Positions 7,111 through 55,637 are shown, counted from the stretch's first letter. The stretch: 64,000 bases of DNA from a virus (IMGVR_UViG_3300028283_000231); one strand, 5' to 3'. The notes: generated by a model not told the origin, from the sequence alone. A program made the numbers and translations.

Positions 7111-7905
7111 TTATCCTCTACGGTGCATTGATGGAGGTCCCGATTTTTTAAGAAAATCCTCTATTGTTTTATAAAATCCTTTCTTTTTAGGTTTTTCAGG
7201 TGGAGGGTTATGTCTTCTAGCTTGTTCTTCTTCGAAGTTTCTTCTATGTAAGGCTTCAATATTAGCTTCCCTACCTCTTTCGAATTCTCTGACTCTACGT
7301 TCCTGGTCTCTTTGTAACATTGCTATAACATCTGCTGGTGGTATATGACGATGAGCCATTCTTGCTCTACCAGCGTCTCTTACATCTGGTGCTGGAATAG
7401 GTTCTACCATATCATCTTCAACGTCCCAATCCTCTTCACCGTAGGCTGCTTCCACTGGATCTCTTTCTGGTTTTTTAACTTTTTCTGGGGTATCCCATAC
7501 TTCTTCACCATAAGGATCAACGTCTGCATGTACTTTTCTTTCTAAATCTTCGTGATAACGAGCACATATATTTAATATAACATCTAAATATTTAGTTCTA
7601 TTATAAATATCACTTTTAAATTTTCTACTATGTGTAGTATTACCTTGTTTGTCTTTTATTATCAATTCGTAAATCTCTGAAAATTCATCGGGACAAGTTT
7701 TAATTATTTCAAAATCGCAATAGGTGTCCTCACACGTGGCAGATTTATTGATGATAACAAACCCTTCATCTTCTAATAATTTCTTTTCTGCCAGTCCAAA
7801 ACTTTTTCCTTTTTCTGGATCAAAAGGCATAAAGGTATCGCCTATTTCGAAATTAGCAGGAGCTTTTCTTTTTAGTTCTTCAAATAATTTAAAACTCTTT
7901 ATCAT
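7111..7905 (-). CDS. Hypothetical late protein with a capsid-targeting-like leader and two DPYGEExW-type tags
   Basis: MIKSFKLFEE start; DVDPYGEEVWD and AAYGEEDWD; TTTAATATATA just upstream. Confidence 0.7.
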   Translation of the reverse strand: MIKSFKLFEELKRKAPANFEIGDTFMPFDPEKGKSFGLAEKKLLEDEGFVIINKSATCEDTYCDFEIIKTCPDEFSEIYELIIKDKQGNTTHSRKFKSDIYNRTKYLDVILNICARYHEDLERKVHADVDPYGEEVWDTPEKVKKPERDPVEAAYGEEDWDVEDDMVEPIPAPDVRDAGRARMAHRHIPPADVIAMLQRDQERRVREFERGREANIEALHRRNFEEEQARRHNPPPEKPKKKGFYKTIEDFLKKSGPPSMHRRG

Positions 7906-7913
7906 AGTAACTG

Positions 7914-7924
7914 TATATATTAAA
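7914..7924 (-). promoter_or_regulatory. Putative phage late promoter TTTAATATATA (representative copy)
   Basis: Exact copies upstream of genes at 7914(-), 17048(-), 24218(-), 32441(+), 42917(-), 50975(-), 51034(+), 54953(+), 58707(-), plus TTTTATATATA variants; analogous to the T4 late TATAAATA. Confidence 0.7.
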
Positions 7925-7986
7925 ATAAACTTTTAATATTTTTATCTATAAATAGTACAACACATTAAAAAATAATTGACTATGAA

Positions 7987-8238
7987 ATGAAAATTATAGA
8001 AATAAAGAACGGTGATGAATTATCAAAGTTTATAGAAGAGTATAAACAATTTCACTCTGAAAGAGGAATAGCTGAAAGTTCAAATATTTTAGTTGGAAAC
8101 TATAATCAAGATAAAGGTAAATTTCTTGTTGTTGATAAAAATGATGACTTGGTTTATGAAGTCAATAAAATATATATTTGTCGACATCAAAATACACACA
8201 TGTTAGATTATAAAATTGAATATTGTGAAATTGGATAA
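7987..8238 (+). CDS. Hypothetical protein
   Basis: 83-aa ORF with phage-like codon usage, behind an AAACTTT...TATAAA element. Confidence 0.6.
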   Translation: MKIIEIKNGDELSKFIEEYKQFHSERGIAESSNILVGNYNQDKGKFLVVDKNDDLVYEVNKIYICRHQNTHMLDYKIEYCEIG

Positions 8239-8300
8239 TTTACCATAAAATTTCTTGAAATGATTTCAAGTGTAAATATTCAAAAAGAATATTCCTATAA

Positions 8301-9374
8301 ATGGAATTTAAAAAGCAATTAGAATGTATGAAAAAAAGGGCGTTAATAACAGGTATAACAGGAATGGATGGTTCTCACTTATCAGAGCTTCTTTTAGAAA
8401 AAGGTTACGAAGTACACGGTATAATTAGACGTTCCAGTTCATTTAATACTGGAAGAATTGATCATATTTACCCCCAATTAAAACTTCATTACGGTGACGT
8501 TACTGATACTCTTTCAATAGAACACGTCATTCAAGACATTAAACCAGATGAATTATATAATCTGGCAGCCCAATCCCACGTAGCAGTTTCTTTTGAACTC
8601 CCTGAATATACAGGTCAAGTAGACGCATTAGGTGTACTTAGAATATTAGAAACAGTTAGACGTTACTCTCCACATACAAAGATATATCAAGCATCTACAT
8701 CAGAATTGTTTGGTAAAGTAGAAGAAGTACCACAAAAAGAAACAACACCATTCCATCCCAGATCTCCTTACGGTGTAGCTAAACTTTACGCTTACTGGAT
8801 TTGTAAAAATTACAGAGAAGCTTATAACTTATTCATCTCTAACGGTATATTATTTAATCACGAAGGCGAGCGTAGAGGTGAAACATTCGTAACAAGAAAA
8901 ATTACAAAAGGTTTGGTTGAGTGGACAAAAACAAAAACCCCTATACATTTAGGTAATTTAAATGCTAAAAGAGATTGGGGTTACGCTAAAGATTTTGTAT
9001 ATGGTATGTATCTCATGTTACAACAAGATAAACCAGATGATTTCGTTTTAGCTACAGGTGAAGCACATTCGAATAAAGAATTTATTGAAGAAGCTTGTAA
9101 ATACGTTAATATTGATATAGTATGGCGTGGAGAAGGAGTTAATGAAATTGGGGTAGATAAAAATTCTGGTGACGCTATTGTGATACAAGTTGATCCAAAA
9201 TATTTCAGACCAGCAGAAGTTGATCTTTTACTTGGTGATCCAACAAAGGCCAAGGAAGTTCTTGGTTGGGAAGCTAAAACTAAATTTAAAGATTTGGTTA
9301 AACTCATGATGGAAAGTGATTTAGATAAATATGGTGAAAAAAATCTATGGCAAAAATTTTTTAAGAAGGGATAA
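8301..9374 (+). CDS. gmd: GDP-mannose 4,6-dehydratase (probable start at 8328)
   Basis: ALITGITGMDGSHL, YNLAAQSHV, YQASTSELFG, PRSPYGVAKLY, NHEGERRGETFVTRKI, RDWGYAKD, FRPAEVD. Confidence 0.97.
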   Translation: MEFKKQLECMKKRALITGITGMDGSHLSELLLEKGYEVHGIIRRSSSFNTGRIDHIYPQLKLHYGDVTDTLSIEHVIQDIKPDELYNLAAQSHVAVSFELPEYTGQVDALGVLRILETVRRYSPHTKIYQASTSELFGKVEEVPQKETTPFHPRSPYGVAKLYAYWICKNYREAYNLFISNGILFNHEGERRGETFVTRKITKGLVEWTKTKTPIHLGNLNAKRDWGYAKDFVYGMYLMLQQDKPDDFVLATGEAHSNKEFIEEACKYVNIDIVWRGEGVNEIGVDKNSGDAIVIQVDPKYFRPAEVDLLLGDPTKAKEVLGWEAKTKFKDLVKLMMESDLDKYGEKNLWQKFFKKG

Positions 9375-10242: not shown

Positions 10243-10306
10243 TAATCAGTGTATTATAAATAACAAGATTAAAAATTTATATATAGGTAAAAAATATAAT
10301 ACGAAA

Positions 10307-11325: not shown

Positions 11326-11651
11326 TGGCTAGACTTTTCACATACGGTGAATTACAAAGGTCTGATGTTCAGATTAAAATTTTAGGTAAAGAGATTCCTG
11401 GAACATTTGACAGTATTAGTAATTGGATGGTACTGAACGATTTCGATAAAGGTAAATATTATTTACAATTAGCTAGTCAGCCAAGTGGAATAGTATTCGG
11501 TAAAATATTAGAATTAACAGACGAAGATATAAAAATCCTAGATAATTACGAAAAAAATTATTTCAGATACACCTTAAAAACAGATAATGACGTCACAGTC
11601 GAAACTTACGTCAAGAACAACGATAAATATAAAGATGATTACGCTTTTTAA
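11325..11651 (+). CDS. Gamma-glutamylcyclotransferase (AIG2-like) family protein
   Basis: LFTYGELQ and ILDNYE motifs. Confidence 0.75.
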   Translation: MARLFTYGELQRSDVQIKILGKEIPGTFDSISNWMVLNDFDKGKYYLQLASQPSGIVFGKILELTDEDIKILDNYEKNYFRYTLKTDNDVTVETYVKNNDKYKDDYAF

Positions 11652-12874
11652 ATAGTTCTAAATACTACAGCGTCTTTGAATTTCCAATAAACAATGATTC
11701 CTTGATCAAAAGAATATTTACCAGTCAATTCTTTTGAGTCTGATGCTCTTACTTTTGTTTTAGTTTTCAATAAATCTACATTCTCAATTTGTTCAACTGT
11801 TCTATATACTGGAAGTTCTTTGCCTATTTTATTAATAAGGAACTGATAATAAGATTCTATTATTTCTAATGTACCCAAGCTCCTCTCTAAGAAAGCTTTT
11901 TTCATTTTTGGATAATCTGGACTCTCAAGCGCCTTTTCGTATTTAGCTTTATTTGCCAATAAATCTTCGTGTGTAGATATTTTTTCCTCTAAAAGGAAAT
12001 CCTTATAAGAAAATTCTAAAAGATCCTCTTTCTTAAAAGGCACTACATTTTTTGCTATAACTACGTCTTCGTCGTCGTCCTCTTCTTCGCTAATTTCAAC
12101 TTTTGTATCACCTTCCTTTGGTCCATTTACTGGTATATTAAATCCAGCTTTCTTTTTAGCGTATTCAGATATTTTAATTTCACTAGCACTCATGTATATA
12201 CTAGTTGTAGTTCCATCCTCTTCAAGAAAATCTACCATACAACTATTATCGTTGTCCCATACATTAGTTACTTCACCAACTTTATTATAATATTCACTTG
12301 CTTGATCTACACATAAAACCTTATCACCCATGTTGAAAATAACATCAGCAGAAGGCTCGTCTGACGATGTAACAAATTCTTTTTTAACTAACATAGAATG
12401 CTTACTTTGATTTTTAGAATCATCTTCATCAAATTCAATAAGGTAAGCGTCTTTATTTACTTTCTTAACTGTTCCCTTGGCGTCTTTCCATTCAGTCTTG
12501 CCTTCTACGCCGTTCACAATGACTCTCTTACCTATACTGATATCGTCGTCTGATGTTTCAGTTTCTTTTTTAGGTTCTTTAGGTTTGAATTGATTTTCGA
12601 TATAACTTGATTGTTTTTTAGCTTCTGTTTCTACTGGTGCTGGTTCGTTTTCAAATCTTAATTCTGATTCTAATGCCATTATAGAAGCACCAGATGGAGT
12701 TTTGATACTGTACTCACCTTTGTTAGTTGAAAAAACAAATGCCACATCACATAAAGCGCCTTTATGTATATTATAATAAGATCTATTTGATAAAGGCGTG
12801 AATATAACCTTATCTCCTTTTTTAAATTTAGAGTCTTCTGTCGATTCTTTTATGTAATCAAAATATTTTAACAT
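11648..12874 (-). CDS. Multi-KOW/SH3-module protein with a capsid-targeting-like leader
   Basis: MLKYFDYIKES start; three GD/KRV..V modules; internal FSYKDFLLEE. Confidence 0.65.
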   Translation of the reverse strand: MLKYFDYIKESTEDSKFKKGDKVIFTPLSNRSYYNIHKGALCDVAFVFSTNKGEYSIKTPSGASIMALESELRFENEPAPVETEAKKQSSYIENQFKPKEPKKETETSDDDISIGKRVIVNGVEGKTEWKDAKGTVKKVNKDAYLIEFDEDDSKNQSKHSMLVKKEFVTSSDEPSADVIFNMGDKVLCVDQASEYYNKVGEVTNVWDNDNSCMVDFLEEDGTTTSIYMSASEIKISEYAKKKAGFNIPVNGPKEGDTKVEISEEEDDDEDVVIAKNVVPFKKEDLLEFSYKDFLLEEKISTHEDLLANKAKYEKALESPDYPKMKKAFLERSLGTLEIIESYYQFLINKIGKELPVYRTVEQIENVDLLKTKTKVRASDSKELTGKYSFDQGIIVYWKFKDAVVFRTI

Positions 12875-12876
12875 AC

Positions 12877-13764
12877 TTACAAATTTATTTTCCTTTTCAC
12901 ATTTAAAAATTTCAATATTATAGATTTTATTCCATCTATATTATATACCCAGTCCTTTTCCCACACATGTAACAATTTAATATTATTATCTTTACATCTA
13001 TTAGATTTATTATCGTGATAGTCCAGTTTTCTAAATTTTTCACTATGCCAATATGTTCCATTAAATTCAAATGCTATTTGTAATTCTGGTAAATAAATAT
13101 CTAACTCCAATGGTGGTATTATTTTTCTACTATTTAAAATTATTATACCATTATAATGTGTTTTTATAAAATCCTGCAGTTGTATTTCATATCCGCTTGT
13201 GTGATTATCAACTGGATTACAAACAGTGCACAATATAGTTTTATATTTATTTTTCCTTGTTATAAACACTTTTTTATTGATTCTATATATCGATCCACAT
13301 TTATCACACTTTAAAATATATTCATTTTTATCATAGTCAACATCAATTATATTTAGATTTGAATATTTATCGATCACGAATTTTTTAAAACTTGACCTCA
13401 AAAAACTTTCATTTCCATATCTTTCAGTATTGGTCTTTTTAATTTTTTCTTTTATTTCATCATTTTGAAAAACATTATCAAAACCATATATATGTTTTAC
13501 AGTTTTATCCATTTTGATTTTTTGACAATTCGAACAACAATAGTACCCACCGTTATTAAAACTCAATAAGTATCTTCTATATTGTAATTTTTTTTCTTTA
13601 CCGCAAATATCACATTTAACATTTATAATATGATGACTTGTTGGTAAAAGATGCTCTATCGGAACACTTATCACGTCGTGCTCTTTTACCACATAACCAA
13701 GATCTTTGTAATGTTTTATACAATAATTGTTTATATTAATATCTACGGTTTTATCTATTATCAT
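12877..13764 (-). CDS. Putative homing endonuclease (Zn ribbon + YG-x-x-N repeats + PD-(D/E)xK domain)
   Basis: CDICG...YCCSNC; ELDIYLPELQIAFEFNGTYWHS; KLLHVWEKDW. Confidence 0.8.
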   Translation of the reverse strand: MIIDKTVDININNYCIKHYKDLGYVVKEHDVISVPIEHLLPTSHHIINVKCDICGKEKKLQYRRYLLSFNNGGYYCCSNCQKIKMDKTVKHIYGFDNVFQNDEIKEKIKKTNTERYGNESFLRSSFKKFVIDKYSNLNIIDVDYDKNEYILKCDKCGSIYRINKKVFITRKNKYKTILCTVCNPVDNHTSGYEIQLQDFIKTHYNGIIILNSRKIIPPLELDIYLPELQIAFEFNGTYWHSEKFRKLDYHDNKSNRCKDNNIKLLHVWEKDWVYNIDGIKSIILKFLNVKRKINL

Positions 13765-15209
13765 ATATTAATTTTCCTTATTTGATTCATCATCATTACT
13801 TTTTTGTTAATCTCTTTTTCTTTTGGTTCTTGCTTTTCCTGTTGGTTCTCATTCCATATGAGATTTAGTTTCCATTTGATTCCGGTAATATCGTGTATAA
13901 TCCAATTCTTCATCAAATCCATAAACTTAAGACCGTAAAAAGTTCCTTGCTTTTCACATCTGCCTAACACGTTTGAAAGATTCCCTATTCCAGGGTGTCC
14001 TCCGCTTTTAGCTCCAGCATATTTGAAACCAAATTGTCTTGGTAAAACAAAATTCATTAAAAACCTCGTATATTTATCCAAATCATCTAACACTTCACCA
14101 CCTTTTAAAACTGGTAATTTTTCTGCTGCATCTATATTTCTGTAAGCAGCCAACTGTAAAGAAGCACCATAATCAAGAAGAATAAATTGAATATTCTTAT
14201 CGTGTTTACCAAGTGCCATTTCTATTAAAGCTCTTGCTCTCAAAGCGTTGGCCCAAGTTCCAACTGGTACATATACTAAATTCTTTATAACAACGAAACC
14301 GTCGAATTTAAATTTATTTTCTTCCATATTCCAGTAGAATGTTTCGAAATCTTCGATATTATATATTGTTGGTTTATCATATTGGCCAAGTGTTTTGCCC
14401 ATCATTTTACCTAGTCTTTCTGTTGAATCTGGCACAAATTCGGGTATTGCTTTTAATTCTTCGTCGTCTTCTAGAGGTATTCTGTTTAGTACTCTATGTC
14501 TTATATCTTCTTTATCTGCTCCTCTTTTTACTGATAGGTTATTCAAAGGATAAAGAATTTTAAATAATTTGAATATTTTATATATGGAAAGTGTGCCGTT
14601 GGCTACAACTTCTATAATAGTTCTATAATCACTTCTTTTAACTAATTGATTGAAAGCCCCAGCAAATACAAGTCTTGGGTCTTTTTCTTTCATTATATCT
14701 CTAAGATTAAAATTTAAAATCGTTTTAATATCAACGTTATATTCGTCATATTTTGCTGCGTCAATCATAGATATAACAGACAGAATGTATTTATCTGTTG
14801 GCATTCCAAGAACTCTTACTATTAAACCGTAACATGAGTCACTTTTCATTTTAATAGAAAATTCGCTTTTCTTATATAAATCGCCTTCTTCCATGTGGTG
14901 ATCTATATAGAGATCAAGGTCAGCGTTATCTTCAGCGTAATCAACACAAACATTTATATATGTTTTATCTATCGTTATATCTCTCCAGCCAGATTCGTAA
15001 TCCATTACACAATATCCGCATATAGTAAATCCTCTATTAGATAAATATTCTTTCATCGCTATCGCGCTGAATATGCCATCCATGTCATTGTGTGTGTAAA
15101 TTATAACATCCTTATCACGTTTGCCTTTCTTCTTCCAGTATCCCAAATCATTTGGAAATTTTACAGAAGCCTCTTCATTTAATATATATTCATTAAATTT
15201 TATTTTCAT
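13761..15209 (-). CDS. DHH-family phosphoesterase with a capsid-targeting-like leader
   Basis: YTHNDMDG, CVDYA, IDHH, GGHPGIG; N-terminus MKIKFNEYILNEE. Confidence 0.8.
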   Translation of the reverse strand: MKIKFNEYILNEEASVKFPNDLGYWKKKGKRDKDVIIYTHNDMDGIFSAIAMKEYLSNRGFTICGYCVMDYESGWRDITIDKTYINVCVDYAEDNADLDLYIDHHMEEGDLYKKSEFSIKMKSDSCYGLIVRVLGMPTDKYILSVISMIDAAKYDEYNVDIKTILNFNLRDIMKEKDPRLVFAGAFNQLVKRSDYRTIIEVVANGTLSIYKIFKLFKILYPLNNLSVKRGADKEDIRHRVLNRIPLEDDEELKAIPEFVPDSTERLGKMMGKTLGQYDKPTIYNIEDFETFYWNMEENKFKFDGFVVIKNLVYVPVGTWANALRARALIEMALGKHDKNIQFILLDYGASLQLAAYRNIDAAEKLPVLKGGEVLDDLDKYTRFLMNFVLPRQFGFKYAGAKSGGHPGIGNLSNVLGRCEKQGTFYGLKFMDLMKNWIIHDITGIKWKLNLIWNENQQEKQEPKEKEINKKVMMMNQIRKINI

Positions 15210-16169: not shown

Positions 16170-17042
16170 TCATCTTATTCTTTCTACTGGTTCTGGTTTA
16201 GAATACGTGCCCCCTTTTCTTTTAAATAATAAAAGTGTTTCAGGTACCCATTTAGTATTACCATCTTTGAATTTAATTCTATATTCTGTAACGTGCATAT
16301 ATGCTTTAAATTCTAATATTTCAACTTCTACTGCGTCAGGTATATATAAACATATATCACCATATTTAAATTTATCGTCTTTGCCTTCATTTAACAATTT
16401 ACCTTTTTTGTACCATCTTATTTTCACTGGTTTTTCTGGTTCTAAATCTTCCATGAAATAAAAATGTTTTCTAGCGTAAGAATCAACATGTCCGTTGTCC
16501 CATTTTATTGTATATGGGAGACCGTCGTATTCTTCCTCATCGTAAGGGTTATAATTTTGTATTACACCACAACCGCTATCTCCTCCTTTAAATCCATAGG
16601 CCTGATTTAGATAATCTTTTGGACAATCTTCTTTCATTTTTACTCTTTTACCAATAAACTCTTTAGATTCGTTTAATTTACCTTTTTTGTACCATCTTAC
16701 TCTTGTTGGTTTCTTATTATCATTGATATATTCATCAATAAAATCAACCCCTTCCATAAAATCGTAACTGTTATAATCATTACCTGGTCCTATTAAACCA
16801 CCTTTTCTACCGTACCCTAAAGCTCCTGGTTCGTGTAATATGAAGCAAAAATCGGGTGATTCATTTTTAAAACAATTATAATCTTTATTCAATGTCTTTA
16901 CTCTTTCTTCCCCCCACGTGAATCCCTCAAAATCCAAAAATTCGGCTATAACATTATAGTCTTCTATACTGTGAATACAAATAATTAATTTAGTTAAACC
17001 ATTTGATGATTCTTTAATATATGTCCAATAGTTTTTCAACAT
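16170..17042 (-). CDS. Three-module late protein with RWYKKGKL-(x)-NE linkers; a possible read-through extension ends at 16113
   Basis: MLKNYWTYIKES leader; two intact RWYKKGKL repeats; a third copy has TGA at the Trp position. Confidence 0.75.
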   Translation of the reverse strand: MLKNYWTYIKESSNGLTKLIICIHSIEDYNVIAEFLDFEGFTWGEERVKTLNKDYNCFKNESPDFCFILHEPGALGYGRKGGLIGPGNDYNSYDFMEGVDFIDEYINDNKKPTRVRWYKKGKLNESKEFIGKRVKMKEDCPKDYLNQAYGFKGGDSGCGVIQNYNPYDEEEYDGLPYTIKWDNGHVDSYARKHFYFMEDLEPEKPVKIRWYKKGKLLNEGKDDKFKYGDICLYIPDAVEVEILEFKAYMHVTEYRIKFKDGNTKWVPETLLLFKRKGGTYSKPEPVERIR

Positions 17043-17117
17043 AACGCTATATATTAAAATTTTTAAACAAAACTTTTAAGGAATAAATTCGTATAAAATA
17101 AAACATTAATTATTGAT

Positions 17118-17900: not shown

Positions 17901-17947
17901 ATTTTCATTTTTCCATATTAATATATAGAAGAAAATAAGTTAGAGTT

Positions 17948-18556
17948 ATGACCAAGAATTATAAATCCTTTGTTGAAGCTGCTAAATGGTATAGTAGTCC
18001 TGAGGAATTAGACGCTGAAGAACGTAGAAATAGTTTTAGTGGTTATCACGATTACGATGAAGGTGGCGACGGTGGTGATTACTACGATGACGATGGTGAT
18101 CCCGATGAATATGGCAAAATTCAGGAGTTTCAAATACAATCCGGCAGAGAACCAGATGAAGATATGGAAGAAAGAGAACTTGATTTAGATATGGATTTTG
18201 ATAGAGATGAAGATCCTAAAACCCCAATAAATGTTGGAGAAGAAGTAGTTTATCTCGGTAATACTGGTGGCAGACGTTATCAATTAGGTTCAGTTCATAA
18301 ATTGAGAGAAGATGGTAAAATTGTAGTTAGGTTTGACGATAAGAAACTTGTTGCTGTGAGTAAACCACATCTAAGACATAAACTTAGCGAAGAAGAAATT
18401 GTGAAAAAGAAAGCTGAATTAGAAATAAAAAAACAAGAAAGAAAGACTAAAAGAGCTGAACAAGAAGCTAAGAGATTAGCACAAGAAGAAGAGGCTAAAA
18501 AGAATCCACCTCCAGTAACTGGCGCAAGATGGTGGGAAAAAAATAAAAAAGAATAA
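17948..18556 (+). CDS. Late protein: leader, acidic tract, KOW/SH3 module, coiled coil, RWW tail
   Basis: MTKNYKSFVEA; VGEEVVYLG...IVVRFDD; GARWWEKNKKE. Confidence 0.65.
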   Translation: MTKNYKSFVEAAKWYSSPEELDAEERRNSFSGYHDYDEGGDGGDYYDDDGDPDEYGKIQEFQIQSGREPDEDMEERELDLDMDFDRDEDPKTPINVGEEVVYLGNTGGRRYQLGSVHKLREDGKIVVRFDDKKLVAVSKPHLRHKLSEEEIVKKKAELEIKKQERKTKRAEQEAKRLAQEEEAKKNPPPVTGARWWEKNKKE

Positions 18557-19575
18557 TGGTAAAAAGATATAAACAATTCATCAACGAAGGAGTAGACGAA
18601 AAAGCAAAAATGGACGAACTCCTCGATAAAGGTTTAGAAAATTTAACACCAGATGAAAAGATACTCCTTGATAAACTTAGCAAAGGTGGTACTCTAGATC
18701 CAGATAATAAACCTGGTAATAGTCCTGTTCATCAAGATGATGATGATTTAGATTATCTTAATAAAATGTTAGGAAATCACGCTGATGAAGAAATTCCTGT
18801 TAAACCTGTGGTTAAAGGTGGACCAGTGAATGACGACGGACCAACAGAAGGCGATAGAATTGTTTATTATAAAGAAGGTTCAGAGCACGATGGTAAAACT
18901 GGTATTTTTGCTGGTATTAGAGAAGATGACGGTAAATATAGAATAGTCTTTGATGATAAGAAAAAATTAGCAGCCAACGCTAAAAATGTTTACGCTGCTG
19001 GTACACCAAGACCTGCACCAAAGAAAAAATTACCTGAGGGTTATCATGAAATTCCAGAAGAAAAATTGGGTAGAGCAGAATGGGGACCAGGTACATTCGA
19101 TGTACCAGATACATTCTACGGTGGTAAAGCACCTGAAAAACCAAAATCTAATTTCAAAAAAGGGGATAAAGTTTTATACAAGAACGATAAATCTGAGCAT
19201 AATAACAAACAAGCAACTTTTGTAGAACAAAAAGAAGACGGCAAATTATCAATCAGATTTGAAGGTGGTGGTAAATTGGCTTGTAATCCAAAGAACGTAG
19301 TTCCTTTCTCAATAGAATTACCTAAACAAGATTTTATTATTCGTCTTGGAACAATACCAGAGAATAATTCGATAGGTGCTGGGGTATTCCTTGATAGTGG
19401 TGAAATGTATGACGAACACATTCTAAATCAATACCCAGAGTTACAAAGAATGGGATTTGAAGAACCCGCTGAAGGTGATTTACGTTATAACGGAGATCTT
19501 GATATAGAAGAATTACACATCGAGTTACAAGAGAGAGATTTCAGAGTTGAAGTTGTTAACGGAAATTTATACTAA
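18556..19575 (+). CDS. Late protein: leader, DUF6576-like helical motif, two KOW/SH3 modules
   Basis: MVKRYKQFINEG; MDELLDKGLENLTPDEKILL; EGDRIVY and KGDKVLY modules. Confidence 0.65.
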   Translation: MVKRYKQFINEGVDEKAKMDELLDKGLENLTPDEKILLDKLSKGGTLDPDNKPGNSPVHQDDDDLDYLNKMLGNHADEEIPVKPVVKGGPVNDDGPTEGDRIVYYKEGSEHDGKTGIFAGIREDDGKYRIVFDDKKKLAANAKNVYAAGTPRPAPKKKLPEGYHEIPEEKLGRAEWGPGTFDVPDTFYGGKAPEKPKSNFKKGDKVLYKNDKSEHNNKQATFVEQKEDGKLSIRFEGGGKLACNPKNVVPFSIELPKQDFIIRLGTIPENNSIGAGVFLDSGEMYDEHILNQYPELQRMGFEEPAEGDLRYNGDLDIEELHIELQERDFRVEVVNGNLY

Positions 19576-39426: not shown

Positions 39427-39530
39427 ATCAGTAACTTATTTTTTCTTATATATTAATTAAAATTTGTCATTTTTGTCATTTTTAAAACTAAAAACTATTT
39501 ATAATATATAATGAAAAAACATTGAAGTTT

Positions 39531-41176: not shown

Positions 41177-41517
41177 TATTCTCTCTCTTTAGTTATGTGA
41201 ATCATACCTGGATAACCAGCGTCTTTTGAAGATGACCAAGCGTCTTTAAATTTCTTGTACTCTTCGTATTTTTGAAAAAATTCTTCATCAGTTAACTTCT
41301 TATATATTTGAGCGTTTTTTAAGATAGACGCCCAACCAAAATTGGTCATGTATTTTAAATCAACTCCACATTCTTCTAAAAAATCATCTACTGTGAGTTC
41401 AGATCCTTCGGGTAATGTTCTTAGTTTATATTCTAGTTCCATAGGAATATCAACTTCTACACCATTTTCTTTGGTTTCTTTAATGTAGTCTTTTAATTTT
41501 GTTTTTAAGTTTTTCAT
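41176..41517 (-). CDS. Hypothetical late protein with leader
   Basis: MKNLKTKLKDYIKE. Confidence 0.65.
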   Translation of the reverse strand: MKNLKTKLKDYIKETKENGVEVDIPMELEYKLRTLPEGSELTVDDFLEECGVDLKYMTNFGWASILKNAQIYKKLTDEEFFQKYEEYKKFKDAWSSSKDAGYPGMIHITKERE

Positions 41518-42894: not shown

Positions 42895-42941
42895 GAAGAT
42901 ATTATTCCTTTTTGCTTATATATTAAATTTTAATTTCTATT

Positions 42942-43814
42942 TTATAACTCGTCAGATATAATTTTTGCCCCGTAAGGTGCCAAATGTAAATCTCTTAATT
43001 TTCTATTTCCATTACATTTAAAGATAGGTACAGAAGCAGGTCCGTTCTTTAAAGTCTTTATATCGTTATTAGAACAATCATAAGTTCCACCAATCATATC
43101 AGGACCGTCCTTTAAATCATCCAATAAATTAAAACTACAATCGAAATTACCAACCAATAAATCTGGTGATCCTTCCAATGAAACTAATAAACAATTATCC
43201 ACGTAATAAGATCCATTTACTATTTTTGGTCCACCAATTAAATCAGGCATACTATTATAACTAGCCATAAAATCCTTTTGAATCTTTTCTGGAGCACCAG
43301 CTAAATCATTTAAACCACTCTGTCTCACATCATAATTACCACCAACAACAGAAGGACCACCTTTTAAACTACCTAATCTATTATTAGTACAAATAAAATT
43401 TCCCTCTACAACATCAGGACACCCCTTCAAATTAACCAACCCACAAGAAGAAGCGTCAAAATCTCCCATCACGTAATCAAATTTAACTGGAATAGTAGCT
43501 AACGGCATTCTAATCTTTACACTCTCTAAAGCATCTACCGTGTAATCGTCATTAATCTTATATTTTCTAAGACCAATTACATTTAAAAATTTTATAATCT
43601 TATCCTTCTGATTATCTTTAATGTAGTACATAATATTGTGGTAATCAGCGTCTTGAAAAGTCATACATCTTAATCTTGGGTGATAGATAAGCATTTCTGC
43701 TTCGTTTAGAATTTCGAATTGTTGCGTAGTGATCTCAAGGTACTCTCCACTTGGTATTCCAACGATACCAATTATTGCAGGACTTGATTCGTACAATTTA
43801 AATTTCTTTATCAT
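42942..43814 (-). CDS. LRR-like solenoid protein (array gene 5)
   Basis: PSGE N-terminal domain + about 22-aa repeats GxFxCxxNxLxxLxGxPxxV. Confidence 0.8.
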   Translation of the reverse strand: MIKKFKLYESSPAIIGIVGIPSGEYLEITTQQFEILNEAEMLIYHPRLRCMTFQDADYHNIMYYIKDNQKDKIIKFLNVIGLRKYKINDDYTVDALESVKIRMPLATIPVKFDYVMGDFDASSCGLVNLKGCPDVVEGNFICTNNRLGSLKGGPSVVGGNYDVRQSGLNDLAGAPEKIQKDFMASYNSMPDLIGGPKIVNGSYYVDNCLLVSLEGSPDLLVGNFDCSFNLLDDLKDGPDMIGGTYDCSNNDIKTLKNGPASVPIFKCNGNRKLRDLHLAPYGAKIISDEL

Positions 43815-44185
43815 ATCGCGTAACTCTCAATTTGCCATCTATCTTCTTCATCGAAGAAATAGTAATTTTTTGCTTTATTGTATTTAATGATACTTGACAT
43901 CGCTAAATTCATGGCGTCTTCTTCTGGTACATTTAAAACCTCACCAGATGATACCTCAATTAGTTCTTCAACTTTGATTATATTGGTATAATAAAAAGAC
44001 ACTAATTCATTGTTATAATCTAACATTATTCTCACGTCACCGTTATCTGATCCGCTAGTATTTACATTTATAATTTTACCAGATTGCATGTAATGTTTAG
44101 AATCTCTATATTTAATGATAACTTTATCACCAGTATTAAGATTGGTATCCCTCAAAGATTTATAACTTTCAAATTTCTTTATCAT
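43811..44185 (-). CDS. KOW + PSGE-type domain protein without LRR (array gene 4)
   Basis: TGDKVIIK; VSSGEVLNV. Confidence 0.65.
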   Translation of the reverse strand: MIKKFESYKSLRDTNLNTGDKVIIKYRDSKHYMQSGKIINVNTSGSDNGDVRIMLDYNNELVSFYYTNIIKVEELIEVSSGEVLNVPEEDAMNLAMSSIIKYNKAKNYYFFDEEDRWQIESYAI

Positions 44186-44900
44186 TGAATAAGTTATTAT
44201 TTTTTATGAAGTTACCCTTTACAACTGGAGCGTCATTAATATTTTTCAAAAGATTATTACTACAATTAAAGTCAGTTAATTTTATAGGTGATCCAGTTAA
44301 AGACGTAAGTTTATTATGACTACAATTATATAATCTAGACACTAATCTTGGACCATCATGTAAATCTTCTAAATGATTATAACTACAATCAAATCTACCG
44401 TGTACTGTTCTAGGTGTATTCTCTAATGTTTCAAGTAAATTATAAGAGCAATTGAAATCACTGGAACATCTATTGAATTTAACTGGAATTCTTGTGAGTT
44501 TTTTATAAGCCATATTGACTGGTCCCATAGCGTCAACACTAAAGTCTGGAAGAATTGAAAATTGATCCTTCAATAAACCACAATCTAAAAGAAATTCTAT
44601 GATTAAACTTTTTGTTAAAGCGTGTCTTTCGTCTCCAATTTTAGGAAGTATGCTTTTTATTTTTCTTTTATTGGCTAGATAATCTTTCACTTTAGGGGCA
44701 AGGAAATCACTACATACCCATCTATATAAGTTCAGCATCTTACCCCTATCGTCGTCGTAGAATATATAATTTCTTTTAACTAAAGGTTCGATATCATCGT
44801 CTGAAAAGTATATAACTTCTCCACTTGGAACACAAACTAAATAGTTTTCTTTCCATTCAATAGATTCGTTATATTTTATAAAATTAGTTACCATGACCAA
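44169..44900 (-). CDS. LRR-like solenoid protein (array gene 3)
   Basis: VPSGEVIY; FNCSYNLLETLE, FDCSYNHLEDL, YNCSHNKLTSL. Confidence 0.8.
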   Translation of the reverse strand: MVMVTNFIKYNESIEWKENYLVCVPSGEVIYFSDDDIEPLVKRNYIFYDDDRGKMLNLYRWVCSDFLAPKVKDYLANKRKIKSILPKIGDERHALTKSLIIEFLLDCGLLKDQFSILPDFSVDAMGPVNMAYKKLTRIPVKFNRCSSDFNCSYNLLETLENTPRTVHGRFDCSYNHLEDLHDGPRLVSRLYNCSHNKLTSLTGSPIKLTDFNCSNNLLKNINDAPVVKGNFIKNNNLFNDKEI

Positions 44901-45739
44901 CTCCCGTCCCCCTCGTCTCTTAATTGATGATTACCAAAGGTTTTTATTTTATTTTTCTTTAAAGCGCTCTGCATAGCAACCACAGGATCAACTTTTCCAC
45001 CCTTTCCACCCATTATATGCAAACAATCTGGCGCACCTTCCATAGATTTCAATGAATTTAAACTACAATCAAAATAACCCTTAACTTTCTTGGGTCCACC
45101 CTTTAAATTCATAAGTAAATTATCAGAGCAATTAAAATCACTTCTTATAATTTCTGGTGATCCATCCAATGATAATAATACATTTAAACTACAATCATAT
45201 AAAGTACCTACATATTTAGGACCACCCGTTAAATCAGATAAATTATTATTACTAACTATAAAAGAACCACCCACTTCATTTGGTGCGCCTTCTAATGTTT
45301 CTAATTTCGAATCCCTCCAAATGAAATCACCACTCACTTTATTGAATTTCATCGGTATCTTTTTAAGACTAGAATTACTTACATATATATCACCTGAAAC
45401 CTCTACCCCTTTAGCAGTCAACATATAAGTTCTAACTCTCTTCTGTTCGTCAAAGAACATAGTTAATTTATTCATGTAATCATCACTATAAGATATACTC
45501 ACGTCTTCTACTTCTGGTTCATTTTTTACTTTTCTTTTTAAGTACCTGAGAACTTTTTCGTAATCTTCGTCTTTGAAGATATAGGACATAAGATTATTAT
45601 GATAAGAAATATATCCTTCTTGTTTAAGGTTATTGATTTCTTTGTAATAAATATCAATAATCTGTCCACTAGGAAGACCTATCAAATATTCAGTATTTAT
45701 TTCAAACTGTTTATATTCTTTAATCATAGTCAACCTCAT
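44888..45739 (-). CDS. LRR-like solenoid protein (array gene 2)
   Basis: GLPSGQIIDI; FNCSDNLLMNLKGGP. Confidence 0.8.
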   Translation of the reverse strand: MRLTMIKEYKQFEINTEYLIGLPSGQIIDIYYKEINNLKQEGYISYHNNLMSYIFKDEDYEKVLRYLKRKVKNEPEVEDVSISYSDDYMNKLTMFFDEQKRVRTYMLTAKGVEVSGDIYVSNSSLKKIPMKFNKVSGDFIWRDSKLETLEGAPNEVGGSFIVSNNNLSDLTGGPKYVGTLYDCSLNVLLSLDGSPEIIRSDFNCSDNLLMNLKGGPKKVKGYFDCSLNSLKSMEGAPDCLHIMGGKGGKVDPVVAMQSALKKNKIKTFGNHQLRDEGDGSWSW

Positions 45740-46589
45740 CTATTTCGTTTCCTTCGTTAAATATAATCTTATTACACGAAGGCATTCCCATTAAATTAAA
45801 AAGTCTATTAAAAGTACAATTAAAATTGCCTGTAACCTCTTTTGGTCCGTTTGTTAAAGTTGTTATAGTGTTATGACTACAATCAAAATTCATTGTCTTT
45901 CTCGATGAGTGGAATAAATTAGTTAATCTATTATAAGACACATTGAAAAACCTAACGTCTATTATTTTTTCTGGCATCCCTTTCAATGTTTTTATATTAT
46001 TCCTTTCACAATCAAATACTACTTGACAGTAATTTGGAAACCCATGCAAATCTTCCAAATTATTATCCATACAATAATATCCACCAGCTACAAACTTAGG
46101 ACCACCTATCAATGTATAAATTTGATTTGAACAACAATCAAAAAATCCACCAATTTGATTTGGAGTATTTGTTAAGTTGTTCAGTTTATTCATACTACAA
46201 TCGAAATTGCCAGTTACTTGTCTGAACTTAATAGGTATCTTTTGTAAGGATTTACCACTTATATCAACGTCCCCTTTAACATCTACACTTAAATCAGCGT
46301 TAACTGTGTAATTACTTATTTTGAAACTCTCCATACAATAATGTATGTATTGGATTTTCATTGGATCCTGTGTGAGCTTCTTTACCATTAAATAATTCTC
46401 ATCAAGAAAAGTAAAATACATACCGCCCTTGTTATATCTGATGAGTCTTTGTTTTTTCAAATTTATAAATTGGTCGTCTGTAATATCTATAACTTCACCA
46501 CTTGGCATACCGACAACGTAACTTGTTATAACACCAGGTAAAGGAGTGTCACCGTCAAGTGTCTCATATAGTTGGAAAGTCTTAATCAC
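45720..46589 (-). CDS. LRR-like solenoid protein (array gene 1)
   Basis: GMPSGEVIDI; FDCSMNKLNNL, FDCSHNTITTL. Confidence 0.8.
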   Translation of the reverse strand: MIKTFQLYETLDGDTPLPGVITSYVVGMPSGEVIDITDDQFINLKKQRLIRYNKGGMYFTFLDENYLMVKKLTQDPMKIQYIHYCMESFKISNYTVNADLSVDVKGDVDISGKSLQKIPIKFRQVTGNFDCSMNKLNNLTNTPNQIGGFFDCCSNQIYTLIGGPKFVAGGYYCMDNNLEDLHGFPNYCQVVFDCERNNIKTLKGMPEKIIDVRFFNVSYNRLTNLFHSSRKTMNFDCSHNTITTLTNGPKEVTGNFNCTFNRLFNLMGMPSCNKIIFNEGNEIDEVDYD

Positions 46590-46678
46590 TAAAAGGCAGT
46601 TTTTTATTTATATATAAAAATTAGGTTCTAAAATTTAATAGAAAAATTAAAGCAAATATATGAAAAAATTGTCTAATA

Positions 46679-47725: not shown

Positions 47726-48583
47726 ATGATTAAACTATTTGAGGATTTTGAACGAAATATAGAAAAAAAATTAATTTATATGGCGTTCGATATAGACGAT
47801 AATTTATTATACATGCCAACAAGGATTCATATGGATCATTTAGTTAACGGCACTTGGATTACAGAACCAGTAGACACAGAAACCTTCGCTAAAATCAGAC
47901 AAGATAAAGTAAATTGGAGATATAAATCCGAACACGAAGGCGACGCATCCTTTGTTGAGTTTCGTGATTGGGGACCAGACGGTAAAGATACATTTTTAAA
48001 TGGATTTAAATACGCTGTTCTTCATAAAAGATTTGGTCCTTCTTGGACAAAATTCATAGAATGCTTAGTTAATGGTAATATTTTCTCAATAATAACATCA
48101 AGAGGTCACTCACCCGAGAATGTTAGAAGAGCATTTGAATGGTTGATATATGAATACGGTTTAGACAATTTTAAAAACCTACATATTAAAAATGTAGATA
48201 AATACGAATCGTTTGAAGATCAAATGATTCAAAACCTATTGAGATATCACGAGATATTCGGATCTGAACCTGATTACGTTATAGATGAGTACCTTGATGT
48301 TTGTCCTATCTACACTATATCATCACCTTATTTCAAAGAGAAGTTTGGCAAAATGGGTCCAGATGACGCTAAGAAAGTATCTTTACAAGATTTCAATGAA
48401 ATAGTTAAAACTTACGCCAAGAAACTTGGAGTTAAGGCTAAATATGGTTTCTCAGATGACGATCCAAAATTTGTTAAAGCCGCGGTTGATCAATTTAGAG
48501 AATTGAAAGATAAAGATCATAAATATGTTAAGTATTCTGTATTTGATACAGGGGATAAAAAAATGAAGAAATTAGATATATGA
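47726..48583 (+). CDS. HAD-superfamily phosphatase-like protein
   Basis: AFDIDDNL (motif I), ITSRGH (motif II), GFSDDD (motif IV); leader MIKLFEDFE. Confidence 0.75.
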   Translation: MIKLFEDFERNIEKKLIYMAFDIDDNLLYMPTRIHMDHLVNGTWITEPVDTETFAKIRQDKVNWRYKSEHEGDASFVEFRDWGPDGKDTFLNGFKYAVLHKRFGPSWTKFIECLVNGNIFSIITSRGHSPENVRRAFEWLIYEYGLDNFKNLHIKNVDKYESFEDQMIQNLLRYHEIFGSEPDYVIDEYLDVCPIYTISSPYFKEKFGKMGPDDAKKVSLQDFNEIVKTYAKKLGVKAKYGFSDDDPKFVKAAVDQFRELKDKDHKYVKYSVFDTGDKKMKKLDI

Positions 48584-49572
48584 AAAACTTTACAAGATTT
48601 ATCAATGAAAATCTAGGAGAGAAGGATGATTTCTCTGGTGTACTATCAGCAATGATGGAACTACCAACAGAAGAAATTTTAAGATTTCGTGACGAACTAA
48701 AAAGTTCTCTAAACGAAAGTGCTCTCAACGAAGCGTACTCCATAGATTTCTTTACTGGTTTAAAAGCTAAATTTAGAAGATGGTTTACTGATAAACTTTT
48801 CAACTTCTTGATCAACAGGAAGAAAGAATATTACGAAAAGTTAATTGATAAATTGGCTATATTTGATTTAACACAAATAGATGACGTTTACAAGGCTTTC
48901 CCAGCTTTTCAATTGAAATCCATGTACCTTGCTGGTGGTATGGACGCTGCTAAAAAAGGTGGCAAAGTTGGTTGGAGAAATTTAGTAGAATACGAACTCG
49001 AAGTTAATCACCCAGGTAATAAAAAGAATTGTCCAGAAGTCACGATATACCTTGGTCCTGAAGGGGACGAAGAAGTTGTAGTTAAACCATCATATTGTAT
49101 TGACGGTCCTATGTTGGATTTATTCATTACCAATCCAAAGAAATGTTTAAATTTATATAACTATCCAGCTTTATTAAACCCAGTTAGAAAAGAAGTTGAT
49201 AGAAATAAAATGGATTTTGATACCTACATTGGCGCACTAAAAAGCGCTAAATCAAATCAACAAGAAATAGAAGACGCTATCAGATTCTTTAGAGAAACAG
49301 TATCTAAAAGAATAGCTTACGAAGACGAATTAATCATAAATAAATCAGACGCTATATTCTTGGGACTCAATCCTGTAGCTGGTGCTGGAACTTACGCTGA
49401 GCTTCAGTTGCTTAGTTTCATAGAAAAACCGCTCTTCTGTACACTTGTAGAAGGATATGAGAATATGGTTGGTGGGTTTAAATTATGGAACATGCCACAA
49501 CTTTGTAAGATGACAAGAAATGAAAAAGAAATGTTAACACTGGTAGATACTCTATATGAGGCTGCTCATTAA
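48580..49572 (+). CDS. Nucleoside 2-deoxyribosyltransferase-like domain protein with leader
   Basis: MKNFTRFINE; MYLAGGM...GWR; LNP; KSDAI...AGTYAE. Confidence 0.6.
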   Translation: MKNFTRFINENLGEKDDFSGVLSAMMELPTEEILRFRDELKSSLNESALNEAYSIDFFTGLKAKFRRWFTDKLFNFLINRKKEYYEKLIDKLAIFDLTQIDDVYKAFPAFQLKSMYLAGGMDAAKKGGKVGWRNLVEYELEVNHPGNKKNCPEVTIYLGPEGDEEVVVKPSYCIDGPMLDLFITNPKKCLNLYNYPALLNPVRKEVDRNKMDFDTYIGALKSAKSNQQEIEDAIRFFRETVSKRIAYEDELIINKSDAIFLGLNPVAGAGTYAELQLLSFIEKPLFCTLVEGYENMVGGFKLWNMPQLCKMTRNEKEMLTLVDTLYEAAH

Positions 49573-53530: not shown

Positions 53531-53759
53531 AACTTTATATATTTCTTTTACATAGGTATATATAAAAATATTTTAGTCATATTTTTCTACTTTTTCTACA
53601 AAATGGAAAAATATGACTTTTTTAACTTAATATATACGATTAAAAACAACATGGAAGAAATTACTTATAAGATAGAGATTATTGAACCTTTAACATTTGA
53701 TGTTAAATTTGGTAAACCTTTTTATAATTTTAGTATAGATATAATAAAAATTAAAGACA

Positions 53760-53939
53760 ATGGCAGCGAAGAAGAAGAATGTAAAAGTCTTTTTTACAAT
53801 GGATGAAGAAATTTACAAAGATTTCGAAAAATATATAGAAGAGAATATTATTGATAAATCAAAGCTTTTAGAGAAGTTGATTATTAAGTATTTAGAAGAA
53901 AACAAAAAAATAATAAAACAATATGGATCCAATATTTAA
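53760..53939 (+). CDS. Ribbon-helix-helix DNA-binding protein (59 aa, not in track)
   Basis: MAAKKKNVKVFFTMDEEIYKDFEKYIEENIIDKSKLLEKLIIKYLEEN. Confidence 0.7.
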   Translation: MAAKKKNVKVFFTMDEEIYKDFEKYIEENIIDKSKLLEKLIIKYLEENKKIIKQYGSNI

Positions 53940-54544
53940 ATGGACTGGTGGAAAAAGAAAAGAAATAAAAACGTTTGGAAAATATTATCCAGATTTTGTT
54001 AAGAATAAAGAAAAGTATCTATATGTAGAACCGTTCTTTGGAGGAGGAGCAGTTTATTGGGATTTGGAAAATGATATGAACATTATAAATGACGTGGATT
54101 TTGATCTTATAAGTTTTCTAATGACATTAAAAAAACAACCTGATGAGATATCATCTATTATAGATGATATTGTTCCTAAAATTGAAGATATAACAAATAA
54201 GGAGAAACAAGGTATTATAGATTGAAATATTTTCTGGTAATTATAAAGATATTATGATTAATAATGATAACGATAATGTCTTTATGTATTTAGATCCACC
54301 ATATACTAGGGATTTTAAAGAATATAGTCACGGTAATGTTTTCGATGATGATTCACAAAAAGAATTATCAAAAGTCTTTAAAAGTATCAAAAAAGGAAAA
54401 GTAATGTTGATAATCAATAAAGACGAATTCACAACATCACTTTATAAAGATTACATTAAAGATGAATATGATTTAAAATATGCTACTAATATAAAGAATA
54501 GATATGATAATAATGTTAAACATTTAATAATAACTAATTATTAA
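53923..54544 (+). pseudogene. Dam-like adenine methyltransferase with an internal deletion and frameshift
   Basis: FKWTGGK and VEPFFGGGAV in fragment 1; MYLDPPY in fragment 2 (different frame); the intervening target-recognition domain is absent. Confidence 0.8.
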
Positions 54545-54884
54545 ATGGTATTCAATTTTTTGGATATTACTGAGAGAACTCTTTTAATATTTTCTTCTTG
54601 ATCAACTTTCTTAATATTTGCTATATGATCGAAATCTAAATCAAGAATTTTCGAAATTTCTCTACCTGTTCTTAACGAGAAATCTTTTCTATTTGTTTTA
54701 ATAGATGAATATTTTAAATCTGAACATCTCCATAAAACTAATCCGAAATCAACGTCTTTGAATCTTTATTGCCATTCCAACTATCACAGAGTCCGGTGAC
54801 ATGTAACATGTTTGTTACTGAGTTGTAATCTCCCCTCATTCCTGTGTTTAGAACTATTTTAATTCCACCTAATATTGTAGCCAT
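54541..54884 (-). pseudogene. Small gene with an apparent 1-nt loss in an A-run near 54765
   Basis: MATILGGIKIVLNTG...WNGNK continues in the -1 frame as RFKDVDFGLVLWRCSDLK...SKKLNTI*. Confidence 0.5.
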
Positions 54885-54968
54885 TTTTTTTTATTTTTTA
54901 AATTTTTACAAATATACTAAAATTATTTAAATTAAAAAACTTAATTCATCATTTTAATATATAGGATT

Positions 54969-55637
54969 ATGATAAAAGTATTTGAACAGTTTAATGAAAA
55001 TGATCCTTATGGCGAAGAAAATTGGGATATTCCAATAACTTTGGATAATTATTTAGAAATTATTAGAAATAATATAGATGGAGATGCTACAATAAAAGAA
55101 ACGAGAATAGGATTGCATTTTGTAGAATTTGATATAATGAATAATCTTCCTAATAATATTAAAAAGAAACTAACTTTTCATTTACATCATATTGGTGGAG
55201 GTATATTTGGATTATTATTAATAAACGACAATAGTGAAATAAATTTAGATCCAATTGGACCAGATGATATTTTTAGTGATTTAGATGAAAAGATTGATAA
55301 ATTGATCCACTGTTTTTTTTATGAACCAAGTGACCCTTTCAAAGTAAAAAAAATATTTGAACAATTTAATGAGAATGATCCTTATAATGAAGAAGAATGG
55401 GGAGATAATGAAGAATTTGAGAAAGATGATTTATTAATAGCTAAAAAAAGTCAATTCAAAAGAAGAAAGTCTGGTATAGTTGAACGTATTGTTCAAGGTG
55501 AAATATATAGAGTAAGAAATGTTATTTATGCTGGCGGTTCAGGAACAAAATATCATACTATAATCGTCCCAGGTATCCTTACTCCAGTTGCCGTTTTTGG
55601 TATTGAACAAATGAAAGAATTTTTTGAAAAAAAGTAA
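54969..55637 (+). CDS. Fused two-unit late protein; each unit begins FEQFNENDPY(G/N)EExW
   Basis: MIKVFEQFNENDPYGEENW and VKKIFEQFNENDPYNEEEW; promoter at 54953. Confidence 0.75.
   Translation: MIKVFEQFNENDPYGEENWDIPITLDNYLEIIRNNIDGDATIKETRIGLHFVEFDIMNNLPNNIKKKLTFHLHHIGGGIFGLLLINDNSEINLDPIGPDDIFSDLDEKIDKLIHCFFYEPSDPFKVKKIFEQFNENDPYNEEEWGDNEEFEKDDLLIAKKSQFKRRKSGIVERIVQGEIYRVRNVIYAGGSGTKYHTIIVPGILTPVAVFGIEQMKEFFEKK

Follow-up and report, generated by a model that had tools for sequence, protein, structure and literature searches.

The capsid-targeting sequence (CTS) of bacteriophage T4 has already been used to package foreign proteins, and every internal head protein of T4 joins the prohead core by means of it. 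This leader reads MKTYQEFIAE on internal proteins IPII and IPIII and begins MKTFKEF on IPI, and it is removed by the gp21 prohead protease (PMC8442874, PMC5694885). The T4 proteins that bear exactly this leader are kept and undergo a single cut (PMC8442874), whereas the proteins of the T4 core are diced by gp21 (PMC5694885). A leader of similar form heads about 18 of the 96 open reading frames (ORFs) in a 64-kb stretch of viral DNA, IMGVR_UViG_3300028283_000231 (64,000 nucleotides; the window). With a probability of roughly 60%, it is the version of the T4 CTS that a lineage of megaphages uses: a scaffold-like propeptide that a gp21-type protease would cut after Glu.

About 54 kb of the window aligns to LR756501.1 at about 72–92% nucleotide identity (mostly 83–92%, about 88% overall), and apart from one rearrangement the two are mostly collinear. 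LR756501.1 is a 735,411-bp uncultured phage, the largest "Mahaphage" genome (Al-Shayeb et al. 2020), and clade members of >634 kb are predicted to infect Bacteroidetes (PMC7162821). The genome-wide tests below were run on LR756501.1; enrichment, ORF and promoter counts were also made on the window. With a G+C content of 29–32% and dense coding on both strands, the window is not a structural module: its genes include a GDP-mannose dehydratase, SbcD/SbcC-like nucleases, a TnpB-like IS605 OrfB and many ORFans.

The leaders of these megaphages share with the T4 CTS their place directly after the start Met, their length of 9–14 residues, the pattern K-x-[YF]-x-x-[FY]-[IL]-x-E with a small residue behind it, and their presence on unrelated proteins. 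The gene order portal, protease, scaffold, capsid is likewise common to T4 and the LR756501 lineage. The differences lie in the carriers and in the details of the leader. T4 has three or four carriers, about 1% of its genes, whereas LR756501 has 57–87 or more (5–8%) and the window about 18 of 96. Megaphage carriers are larger (median 214 residues), with enzymes among them, and do not stand out as basic DNA-binding proteins, while their leaders include a second, shorter type and usually have N or K at P2 rather than A. Removal and packaging are known for T4 and predicted for the megaphage leaders.

The T4 prohead core (gp21, gp22, gp67 and gp68) provides a second comparison. The protease domain is homologous and the scaffold rich in (I/L)-A-E sites, but in the megaphage relative a single 807-residue protein unites protease and scaffold, its scaffold part carries 12 regular CTS-like repeats where gp22 has only scattered sites, and a second, stand-alone protease paralog is present. 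The phiKZ-like giants (phiKZ, 201phi2-1 and SPN3US) cut many head proteins after Glu with a gp21-related protease, as predicted here, and likewise have a diverged protease paralog (PMC5694885). Unlike the megaphages, however, they use (S/A/G)-x-E sites and long, dissimilar propeptides with no common short leader; 8 of about 50 head proteins are processed in SPN3US, and processing in this group was shown by mass spectrometry. The cargo-loading peptides of encapsulins, an analogy only, are also short portable peptides that send unrelated enzymes into an HK97-fold shell, but they are usually C-terminal, bind the shell protein directly, undergo no removal by a protease and are unrelated in sequence.

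Enrichment of the leader at N-termini

Two patterns were counted within the first 10 residues of each ORF: pattern 1, K.[FYW]..[FYW].{0,2}E, and pattern 2, [FYW]..[FYW][ILVM].E, the latter taken a priori from T4. Pattern 1 heads 12 of the 96 window ORFs where the internal rate predicts 0.46, and 500 shuffles of each N-terminus gave 0.4 on average and never more than 3. Pattern 2 heads five ORFs against 0.2–0.3 expected. Among the 1036 ORFs of LR756501, 57 carry pattern 1 and 53 pattern 2 (2.9–4.5 expected), and the two combined mark 87, so that 57–87 genes (5–8%) are tagged. Eight long-type leaders of the window fit M-K-x-[YF]-x-x-F-[IL]-x-E, with F, Y or W at both aromatic positions, and the short type (MIKKFKLFE) matches the T4 pattern only after two residues are dropped.

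The same ORF caller and the same patterns were applied to four other phages.

T4: PF03420 protease present (gene 21); 3–4 of 301 N-terminal matches, including IPII and IPIII; IPI has the variant MKTFKEF
KVP40: G+C 43%; PF03420 protease present; about 4 of 392 N-terminal matches
P-SSM2: G+C 36%; PF03420 protease present; about 5–7 of 331 N-terminal matches
Bacillus phage G (400 kb sampled): G+C 30.0%; no PF03420 protease found; 1 and 0 of 533 N-terminal matches, 1.2 expected

In the 400 kb sampled of phage G, which is equally AT-rich, neither a gp21-family protease nor enrichment of the leader was found. Since the protease-bearing phages are enriched and phage G is not, it is the T4-type head system, and not AT-richness, that predicts the tag. 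As a share of genes, the tag is expanded about five-fold in the megaphage.

T4 itself holds a further CTS-like start. The 54-residue hypothetical protein gp61.1 (AF158101, 18966-19130, gene 61.1) begins MKTFKEFIKE and lies outside the known internal-protein genes.

The leader resembles the repeats of a prohead scaffold

The preliminary description of the window had likened the leader of these genes, taken to be late, to the T4 CTS. The likeness is borne out by the head module of LR756501, by the CTS-like repeats of its scaffold and by a repeat profile that ranks the T4 CTS first; the lateness is deduced only from the promoters discussed below. Three adjacent head genes of LR756501 stand in the order of T4 genes 20, 21, 22 and 23.

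LR756501 71969-73795: T4-type portal (PF07230, E 8e-71)
LR756501 73913-76336: protease-scaffold protein of 807 residues, whose N-terminal 250 residues match the phrog_207 head maturation protease (E 5e-27)
LR756501, directly after the protease-scaffold gene: gp23-type major capsid protein (PF07068, E 2e-25)

The protease part is 26% identical to T4 gp21, with the His and Ser motifs aligned (GEFDHP over GELNHP and VSSRAAG over VSSRGLG). The scaffold part aligns weakly to T4 gp22 and is rich in (I/L)-A-E sites. Its residues 319–486 form 12 tandem 14-residue repeats of consensus N-I-K-Y-S-E-Y-I-A-E-N-L-D-K, the core of which, Y-S-E-Y-I-A-E, is nearly the Y-Q-E-F-I-A-E of the T4 CTS. The best 120 of 1621 protease-scaffold homologs, whose protease domains are ≥63% identical, each contain the core motif 7–15 times (in 117 of them, 10 times or more), mostly at intervals of 14 residues. 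All 120 have the same repeat consensus, which leaves no variation in it to set against that of the leaders across lineages. The CTS-like character of the repeats suggests that targeting occurs by co-assembly of like helices.

A 10-column profile was built from 512 distinct scaffold-repeat units, with no leaders in the input. Across the 51,657 positions of the T4 proteome, the CTS of IPII and that of IPIII rank first and second (13.9 bits), and gp22 is within the top five. The genuine maturation site of T4 gp23 (FGSFLTE, followed by A) is the second-best match inside that protein, and the best match in KVP40 belongs to the ORF immediately downstream of the protease gene. At the N-termini of LR756501, 11 matches reach at least 10 bits against 0.86 expected and 21 reach at least 8 bits against 3.6 expected, and the profile selects megaphage N-termini at 6–18 times the rate of internal sites. 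In 48 of 87 leaders the Glu is followed by A, S, G or N, and the ten residues beyond that position are enriched in E, D, P and A. The motif shared by leaders and repeats can be read as an extended gp21-type site, with aromatic residues at P7 and P4, I, L or V at P3 and Glu at P1, then a small residue.

These comparisons allow a mechanism to be proposed. The phage-specific TATATA promoter class would transcribe the tagged genes together with the head genes, and the amphipathic leader, built like a single unit of the scaffold repeat of the phage, would co-assemble with the repeat region of the protease-scaffold core as the shell forms around it. The protease would then dice the scaffold into peptides of about 14 residues and clip the cargo leaders after Glu, so that the cargo would remain in the head and enter the host with the DNA. 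Scaffold binding, cleavage, retention in the virion and injection of the tagged proteins are all predictions from sequence comparison.

Two observations concern the head genes themselves. Just upstream of the LR756501 head module, at 61904-66169, a TATATA-headed operon encodes four paralogs, each about 350 residues long, whose starts resemble the leader (MSTLSHYKNFVNE and MALYNYNGFLFE among them) and which are candidates for major core or internal proteins. In the window, a 74-residue ORF behind a TATATA box (39202-39426, minus strand) starts MITLNQNGMGRIVAP, and 11 of 13 residues match residues 74–86 of the LR756501 major capsid protein. Those residues follow directly after the predicted maturation site of that capsid protein, between QMNE and NVGYATLNQNGMGRVLAP, and the product may mimic or derive from the capsid N-arm.

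Tagged genes in the window

All 14 N-termini quoted in the preliminary description translate as given, and the leader pattern that it reported stands. Its count of about 20 genes does not: four candidates beyond the 14 bring the total to about 18 of the 96 ORFs, paralogs included.

7111-7905 (−): 264 residues; short-type leader MIKSFKLFE (7879-7905); TATATA 7914-7919; internal DPYGEEVW at residue 130
11648-12874 (−): 408 residues; leader MLKYFDYIKE (12845-12874), then STEDSK; last gene of the unit headed at 16104
13761-15209 (−): 482 residues; leader MKIKFNEYILNE (15174-15209); DHH-type phosphoesterase domain from residue 35
16170-17042 (−): 290 residues; leader MLKNYWTYIKE (17010-17042); TATATA 17048-17053, 5 nt before ATG; modules joined by RWYKKGKL-x-NE linkers
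17948-18556 (+): 202 residues; leader MTKNYKSFVE (17948-17977), then AAKWYS; TATATA 17922-17927, 20 nt before ATG
18556-19575 (+): 339 residues, family B; leader MVKRYKQFINE (18556-18588), then GVDEKA; second gene of the unit starting at 17948
21538-22413 (+): additional candidate, 291 residues; MINIIKYSLFE; TATATA 7–9 nt before ATG
39522-39698 (+): additional candidate, 58 residues, TTG start; MKFMNNKKFVEFLE; TATATA 11 nt upstream
41176-41517 (−): 113 residues; long leader MKNLKTKLKDYIKE; last gene of the unit headed at 42894
42208-42894 (−): 228 residues, family B; leader MDKIVKSYRSFINE (42853-42894); TATATA 42917-42922, 22 nt before ATG
42942-43814 (−): 290 residues, family A; leader MIKKFKLYE; unit headed at 46589
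43811-44185 (−): weak candidate, 124 residues, grouped with family A; MIKKFESYK, no Glu after the second aromatic residue
44169-44900 (−): additional candidate, 243 residues, TTG start, family A; MVMVTNFIKYNE
44888-45727 (−): 279 residues from the second Met, family A; leader MIKEYKQFE (45701-45727)
45720-46589 (−): 289 residues, GTG start, family A; leader (V/M)IKTFQLYE; TATATA 46609-46616, 19–21 nt upstream; heads a five-gene unit
47726-48583 (+): 285 residues; leader MIKLFEDFE; TATATA boxes directly upstream
48580-49572 (+): 330 residues; leader MKNFTRFINE (48580-48609), then NLGEKD; second gene of the unit starting at 47726
54969-55637 (+): 222 residues; leader MIKVFEQFNE, leading straight into DPYGEENW; TATATA 54958-54963, 5 nt before ATG

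The leader is 9–14 residues long and stands directly at the start. All 18 candidates begin at the first start codon of the ORF, except that the ORF quoted at 45739 most likely begins at its second Met (ATG 45727, MIKEYKQFE), matching the start of the LR756501 ortholog; the ORF at 46589 uses a GTG start codon. The chosen starts are supported by the TATATA boxes, since these lie at a fixed 5 or 19–22 nt upstream.

All-against-all BLASTP places four or five of the genes in paralog family A (42942, 43811, 44169, 44888 and 45720) and two in family B (18556 and 42208). Collapsing both families leaves about 12–13 unrelated bodies in which BLASTP detects nothing in common beyond the leader. A Pfam search of 20 window carriers gave almost nothing besides a near-threshold DHH match. 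This match, in 13761-15209, scored 27.7 bits against a cut-off of 28.1; the Atlas also leads to DHH/DHHA1, and a PDB sequence search with the DHH-like protein gave no match. The body of 11648-12874 looks like three small beta-barrel (SH3/Tudor-like) modules. Against the scaffold-repeat profile, the leaders of 11648-12874 and 41176-41517 score 8.6 and 8.5 bits, respectively. In 54969-55637, leader plus second tag (MIKVFEQFNENDPYGEENW) recurs near residue 150 as KKIFEQFNENDPYNEEEW, and the gene looks like an in-frame fusion of two tagged genes.

A portable module selected as a peptide

Synonymous codon usage in the leaders equals that of the gene bodies. Where two leaders have the same amino acid, they use the same codon in 57.9% of cases, and codon usage predicts 59.1%. 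Because both measures equal expectation, an mRNA signal and a spreading DNA cassette are ruled out, and selection acts on the leader peptide rather than on the DNA.

The leader is also a portable module on otherwise unrelated proteins, as seen in the BLASTP comparison above, the tally of Pfam domains, the exchange of leaders between orthologs and the detached helix of a structural model. Pfam domains occur in only about 10 of 86 tagged LR756501 proteins, including PPK2, DeoC, an S-adenosylmethionine methyltransferase and a nucleotidyltransferase. In PPK2 and DeoC, tag and linker precede the enzyme domain, and a second PPK2 gene of LR756501 lacks the tag. The leader has been exchanged between orthologs with 97%-identical bodies: 47726-48583 begins MIKLFEDFE and its counterpart at LR756501 237854-238744 begins MKKLSNIKNFELFLNE, the N-terminal 15–26 residues having been replaced. 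In the converse case, 7111-7905 shares a 10/10 identical leader with its ortholog and a body of only 57% identity. These two pairs apart, the genomes are too close for an informative contrast (leader identity 93%, body 88%); the leader of 18556-19575, for example, is identical to its LR756501 ortholog at 11 of 11 residues.

Conservation and structure prediction separate leader from body in 48580-49572. Nearly all of its homologs (22–48% identity) keep the N-terminal aromatic-x-x-aromatic-[ILV]-N-E-[SN], while the x positions vary. In its AlphaFold2 model (mean predicted local distance difference test score 80, predicted template-modeling score 0.79), the leader is a short low-confidence helix at residues 4–10, followed by a linker at residues 8–15 and a folded body from about residue 19. 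This body consists of a helical N-domain and a Rossmann-like domain with the motifs YLAGG...GWR and AGAGT.ELQ, presumably akin to those of nucleoside 2-deoxyribosyltransferase-like enzymes. The best meaningful match of Foldseek in the PDB was a weak one to YtoQ (8of6; E 0.07, probability 0.99, template-modeling score 0.64 by target), and the protein may be a nucleotide-processing enzyme.

TATATA promoters

As the preliminary description had it, the leader genes lie behind TATATA promoters or in operons that have them: all 18 window genes fall in nine TATATA-headed units. The genome-wide enrichment that it proposed to look for is found in LR756501, where unit-heading ORFs were defined as those with an upstream spacer of at least 40 nt. 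Of the tagged unit-heading genes, 26 of 27 have TATATA; the figure for the others is 154 of 323 (odds ratio 28.5, p 2e-7). The box TT(A/T)A-TATATA-(A/G) is found no more than 70 nt ahead of 286 ORFs out of 1036 in LR756501 and ends exactly 5 nt or 19–22 nt before the ATG. Its phage-type form is TTAATATATA(G/A), with window examples at 17048-17053, 54958-54963 and 7914-7919. The 5-nt spacing implies that such mRNAs would be leaderless or nearly so.

In LR756501, a TATATA box also precedes the portal gene, the protease-scaffold gene and the four-gene operon of tagged paralogs beside the head module. Co-regulation of the tagged genes with the head genes is supported, since the promoter class is common to both, and this common class is what suggests late timing. 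LR756501 units without a TATATA box are enriched for the element of a second, host-like promoter class, TATCTTTG, similar to the Bacteroidetes TAnnTTTG element; host-like boxes of the window lie upstream of 19630 and 57453.

A second tag, DPYGEE-x-W

A second short motif, DPYGEE-x-W, is even more stereotyped than the leader. LR756501 has 106 copies in 91 proteins: 39 stand at the very C-terminus, 21 come directly behind the N-terminal leader and the other 46 are internal; the stand-alone prohead-protease paralog has DPYGEENW as its C-terminus. The motif occurs in 21 of 87 leader-tagged proteins and 70 of 949 others (odds ratio 4.0, p 5e-6), and genes with it show only a weak trend towards TATATA promoters (p 0.09). 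Window copies are found in 7111-7905 (residue 130), 22782-24209 (residues 123, 227 and 365) and 54969-55637 (residue 12, with a degenerate DPYNEEEW near residue 160). A literature search for the motif found nothing on phages, and DPYGEE-x-W may be a second docking tag.

Two window proteins, 16170-17042 and 22782-24209, are built like polyproteins, with small beta-barrel-like modules joined by stereotyped linkers. The linkers are RWYKKGKL-x-NE, or DPYGEE-x-W followed by x-x-S-x-(I/V)-N-E, and each ends in a protease-like (I/V/L)-N-E site. The second of these proteins, 22782-24209, ends in a leader-like stub, MITSFHAF.

Other genes of the window

Outside the tagged set, the minus-strand gene at 58727-59989 is an IS605 OrfB/TnpB-like gene in a phage genome, with Cas12f1-like TNB, OrfB_IS605 and HTH domains. 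An SbcD-like metallophosphatase (24296-24970) and a 1011-residue SMC/Rad50-like ATPase (25907-28942) probably correspond to the T4 gp47/gp46 recombination nuclease.

Weighing the explanations

Several points count against equating the leader with the CTS. The protease-scaffold scores 22.9 bits for PF03420, within a range of 22.9–24.7 bits that falls under the Pfam cut-off of 27, so that the protease call rests on PHROGs and the aligned catalytic motifs. The head module is that of the 88%-identical LR756501, and from it the genome of the window would be expected to encode a gp21-family protease and scaffold. The profile result is weaker in the window alone, with 3 N-terminal matches of at least 8 bits against 0.37 expected. 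At the level of the site, the short leader type often lacks I or L at P3 (QFE, DFE), and P2 is mostly N or K in the leaders and A in the scaffold repeats. The extended motif is not depleted in the mature bodies of tagged proteins (5 observed, 4.7 expected), although little can be read from such small counts. As the promoter of about half of all transcription units, the TATATA class is too common to establish late timing, and a tag on 5–8% of genes would mean 60–90 or more packaged species, far more than in any known phage.

That last figure is also the starting point of a different account, in which the leader is a real portable tag with a destination other than the capsid, such as another assembly or compartment, a shared chaperone or timed degradation, and its likeness to T4 arose when both converged on a short amphipathic helix with a terminal Glu. 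The share of genes is large for capsid cargo, the leader co-occurs with DPYGEE-x-W, and its carriers include metabolic enzymes (PPK2 and DeoC, for example). This account is nevertheless unlikely: the head scaffold holds 12 copies of the motif beside a gp21-type protease, the T4 CTS is the top T4 match of the repeat profile, enrichment follows the phages with the gp21-type protease family, and the small residue after Glu fits a cleavage site. It is still less probable that the leader directs its carriers into the prohead and is cleaved there, while most of them, like T4 gp67 and gp68, serve the core or scaffold only transiently and are then degraded or expelled, with no injected arsenal. Many carriers are indeed small, acidic or low-complexity ORFans, the repeated linkers hold further x-N-E sites, four tagged paralogs lie directly upstream of the LR756501 head module, and gp21 dices the T4 core (PMC5694885); but folded enzyme bodies (PPK2, DeoC, DHH-like, YtoQ-like) are implausible as scaffold filler, and the T4 proteins with the exact leader are kept after their single cut (PMC8442874).

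A tag of any kind could be dispensed with if the similarity had no common function and came from AT-rich composition, an mRNA effect on translation start, common descent or a cassette of promoter plus first codons. The genome has 30% G+C, its genes often encode Lys, Ile, Phe and Tyr close to the start, and some carriers are paralogous. Against this stand shuffles within N-termini that never reach the observed counts, the lack of enrichment in phage G at the same G+C, leader codon choice and a same-codon fraction at expectation, and bodies that are mostly unrelated and include different enzyme folds. On these grounds the composition, mRNA-level, DNA-cassette and paralogy explanations were rejected, and an origin without common function is very improbable.

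Implications for huge phages

The match of the leader to the T4 CTS makes it probable that the phage head holds an unusually large protein cargo. No paper that connects huge phages with capsid targeting came up in a literature search. A bolder proposal, put forward tentatively and short of even odds, is that a single scaffold-repeat unit serves as a universal address tag: it would load about 60–100 proteins (5–10% of coding capacity, among them PPK2, DeoC, DHH-type and YtoQ-like proteins), which would be freed by the gp21-type protease and delivered with the DNA, and the T4 CTS would itself be a scaffold mimic. If true, such mimicry would explain how the T4 CTS works, for which no receptor is known after 30 years. 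The scaffold repeats offer a concrete mechanism for capsid targeting, co-assembly of leader and scaffold followed by cleavage, which is still missing for T4. Should the tag work as in T4, huge phages would inject a proteome far larger than that known for any other phage. This would help to explain how a 600–735-kb genome takes over the cell before its own genes are expressed, and it would allow the injected arsenal of uncultured phages to be listed from sequence.

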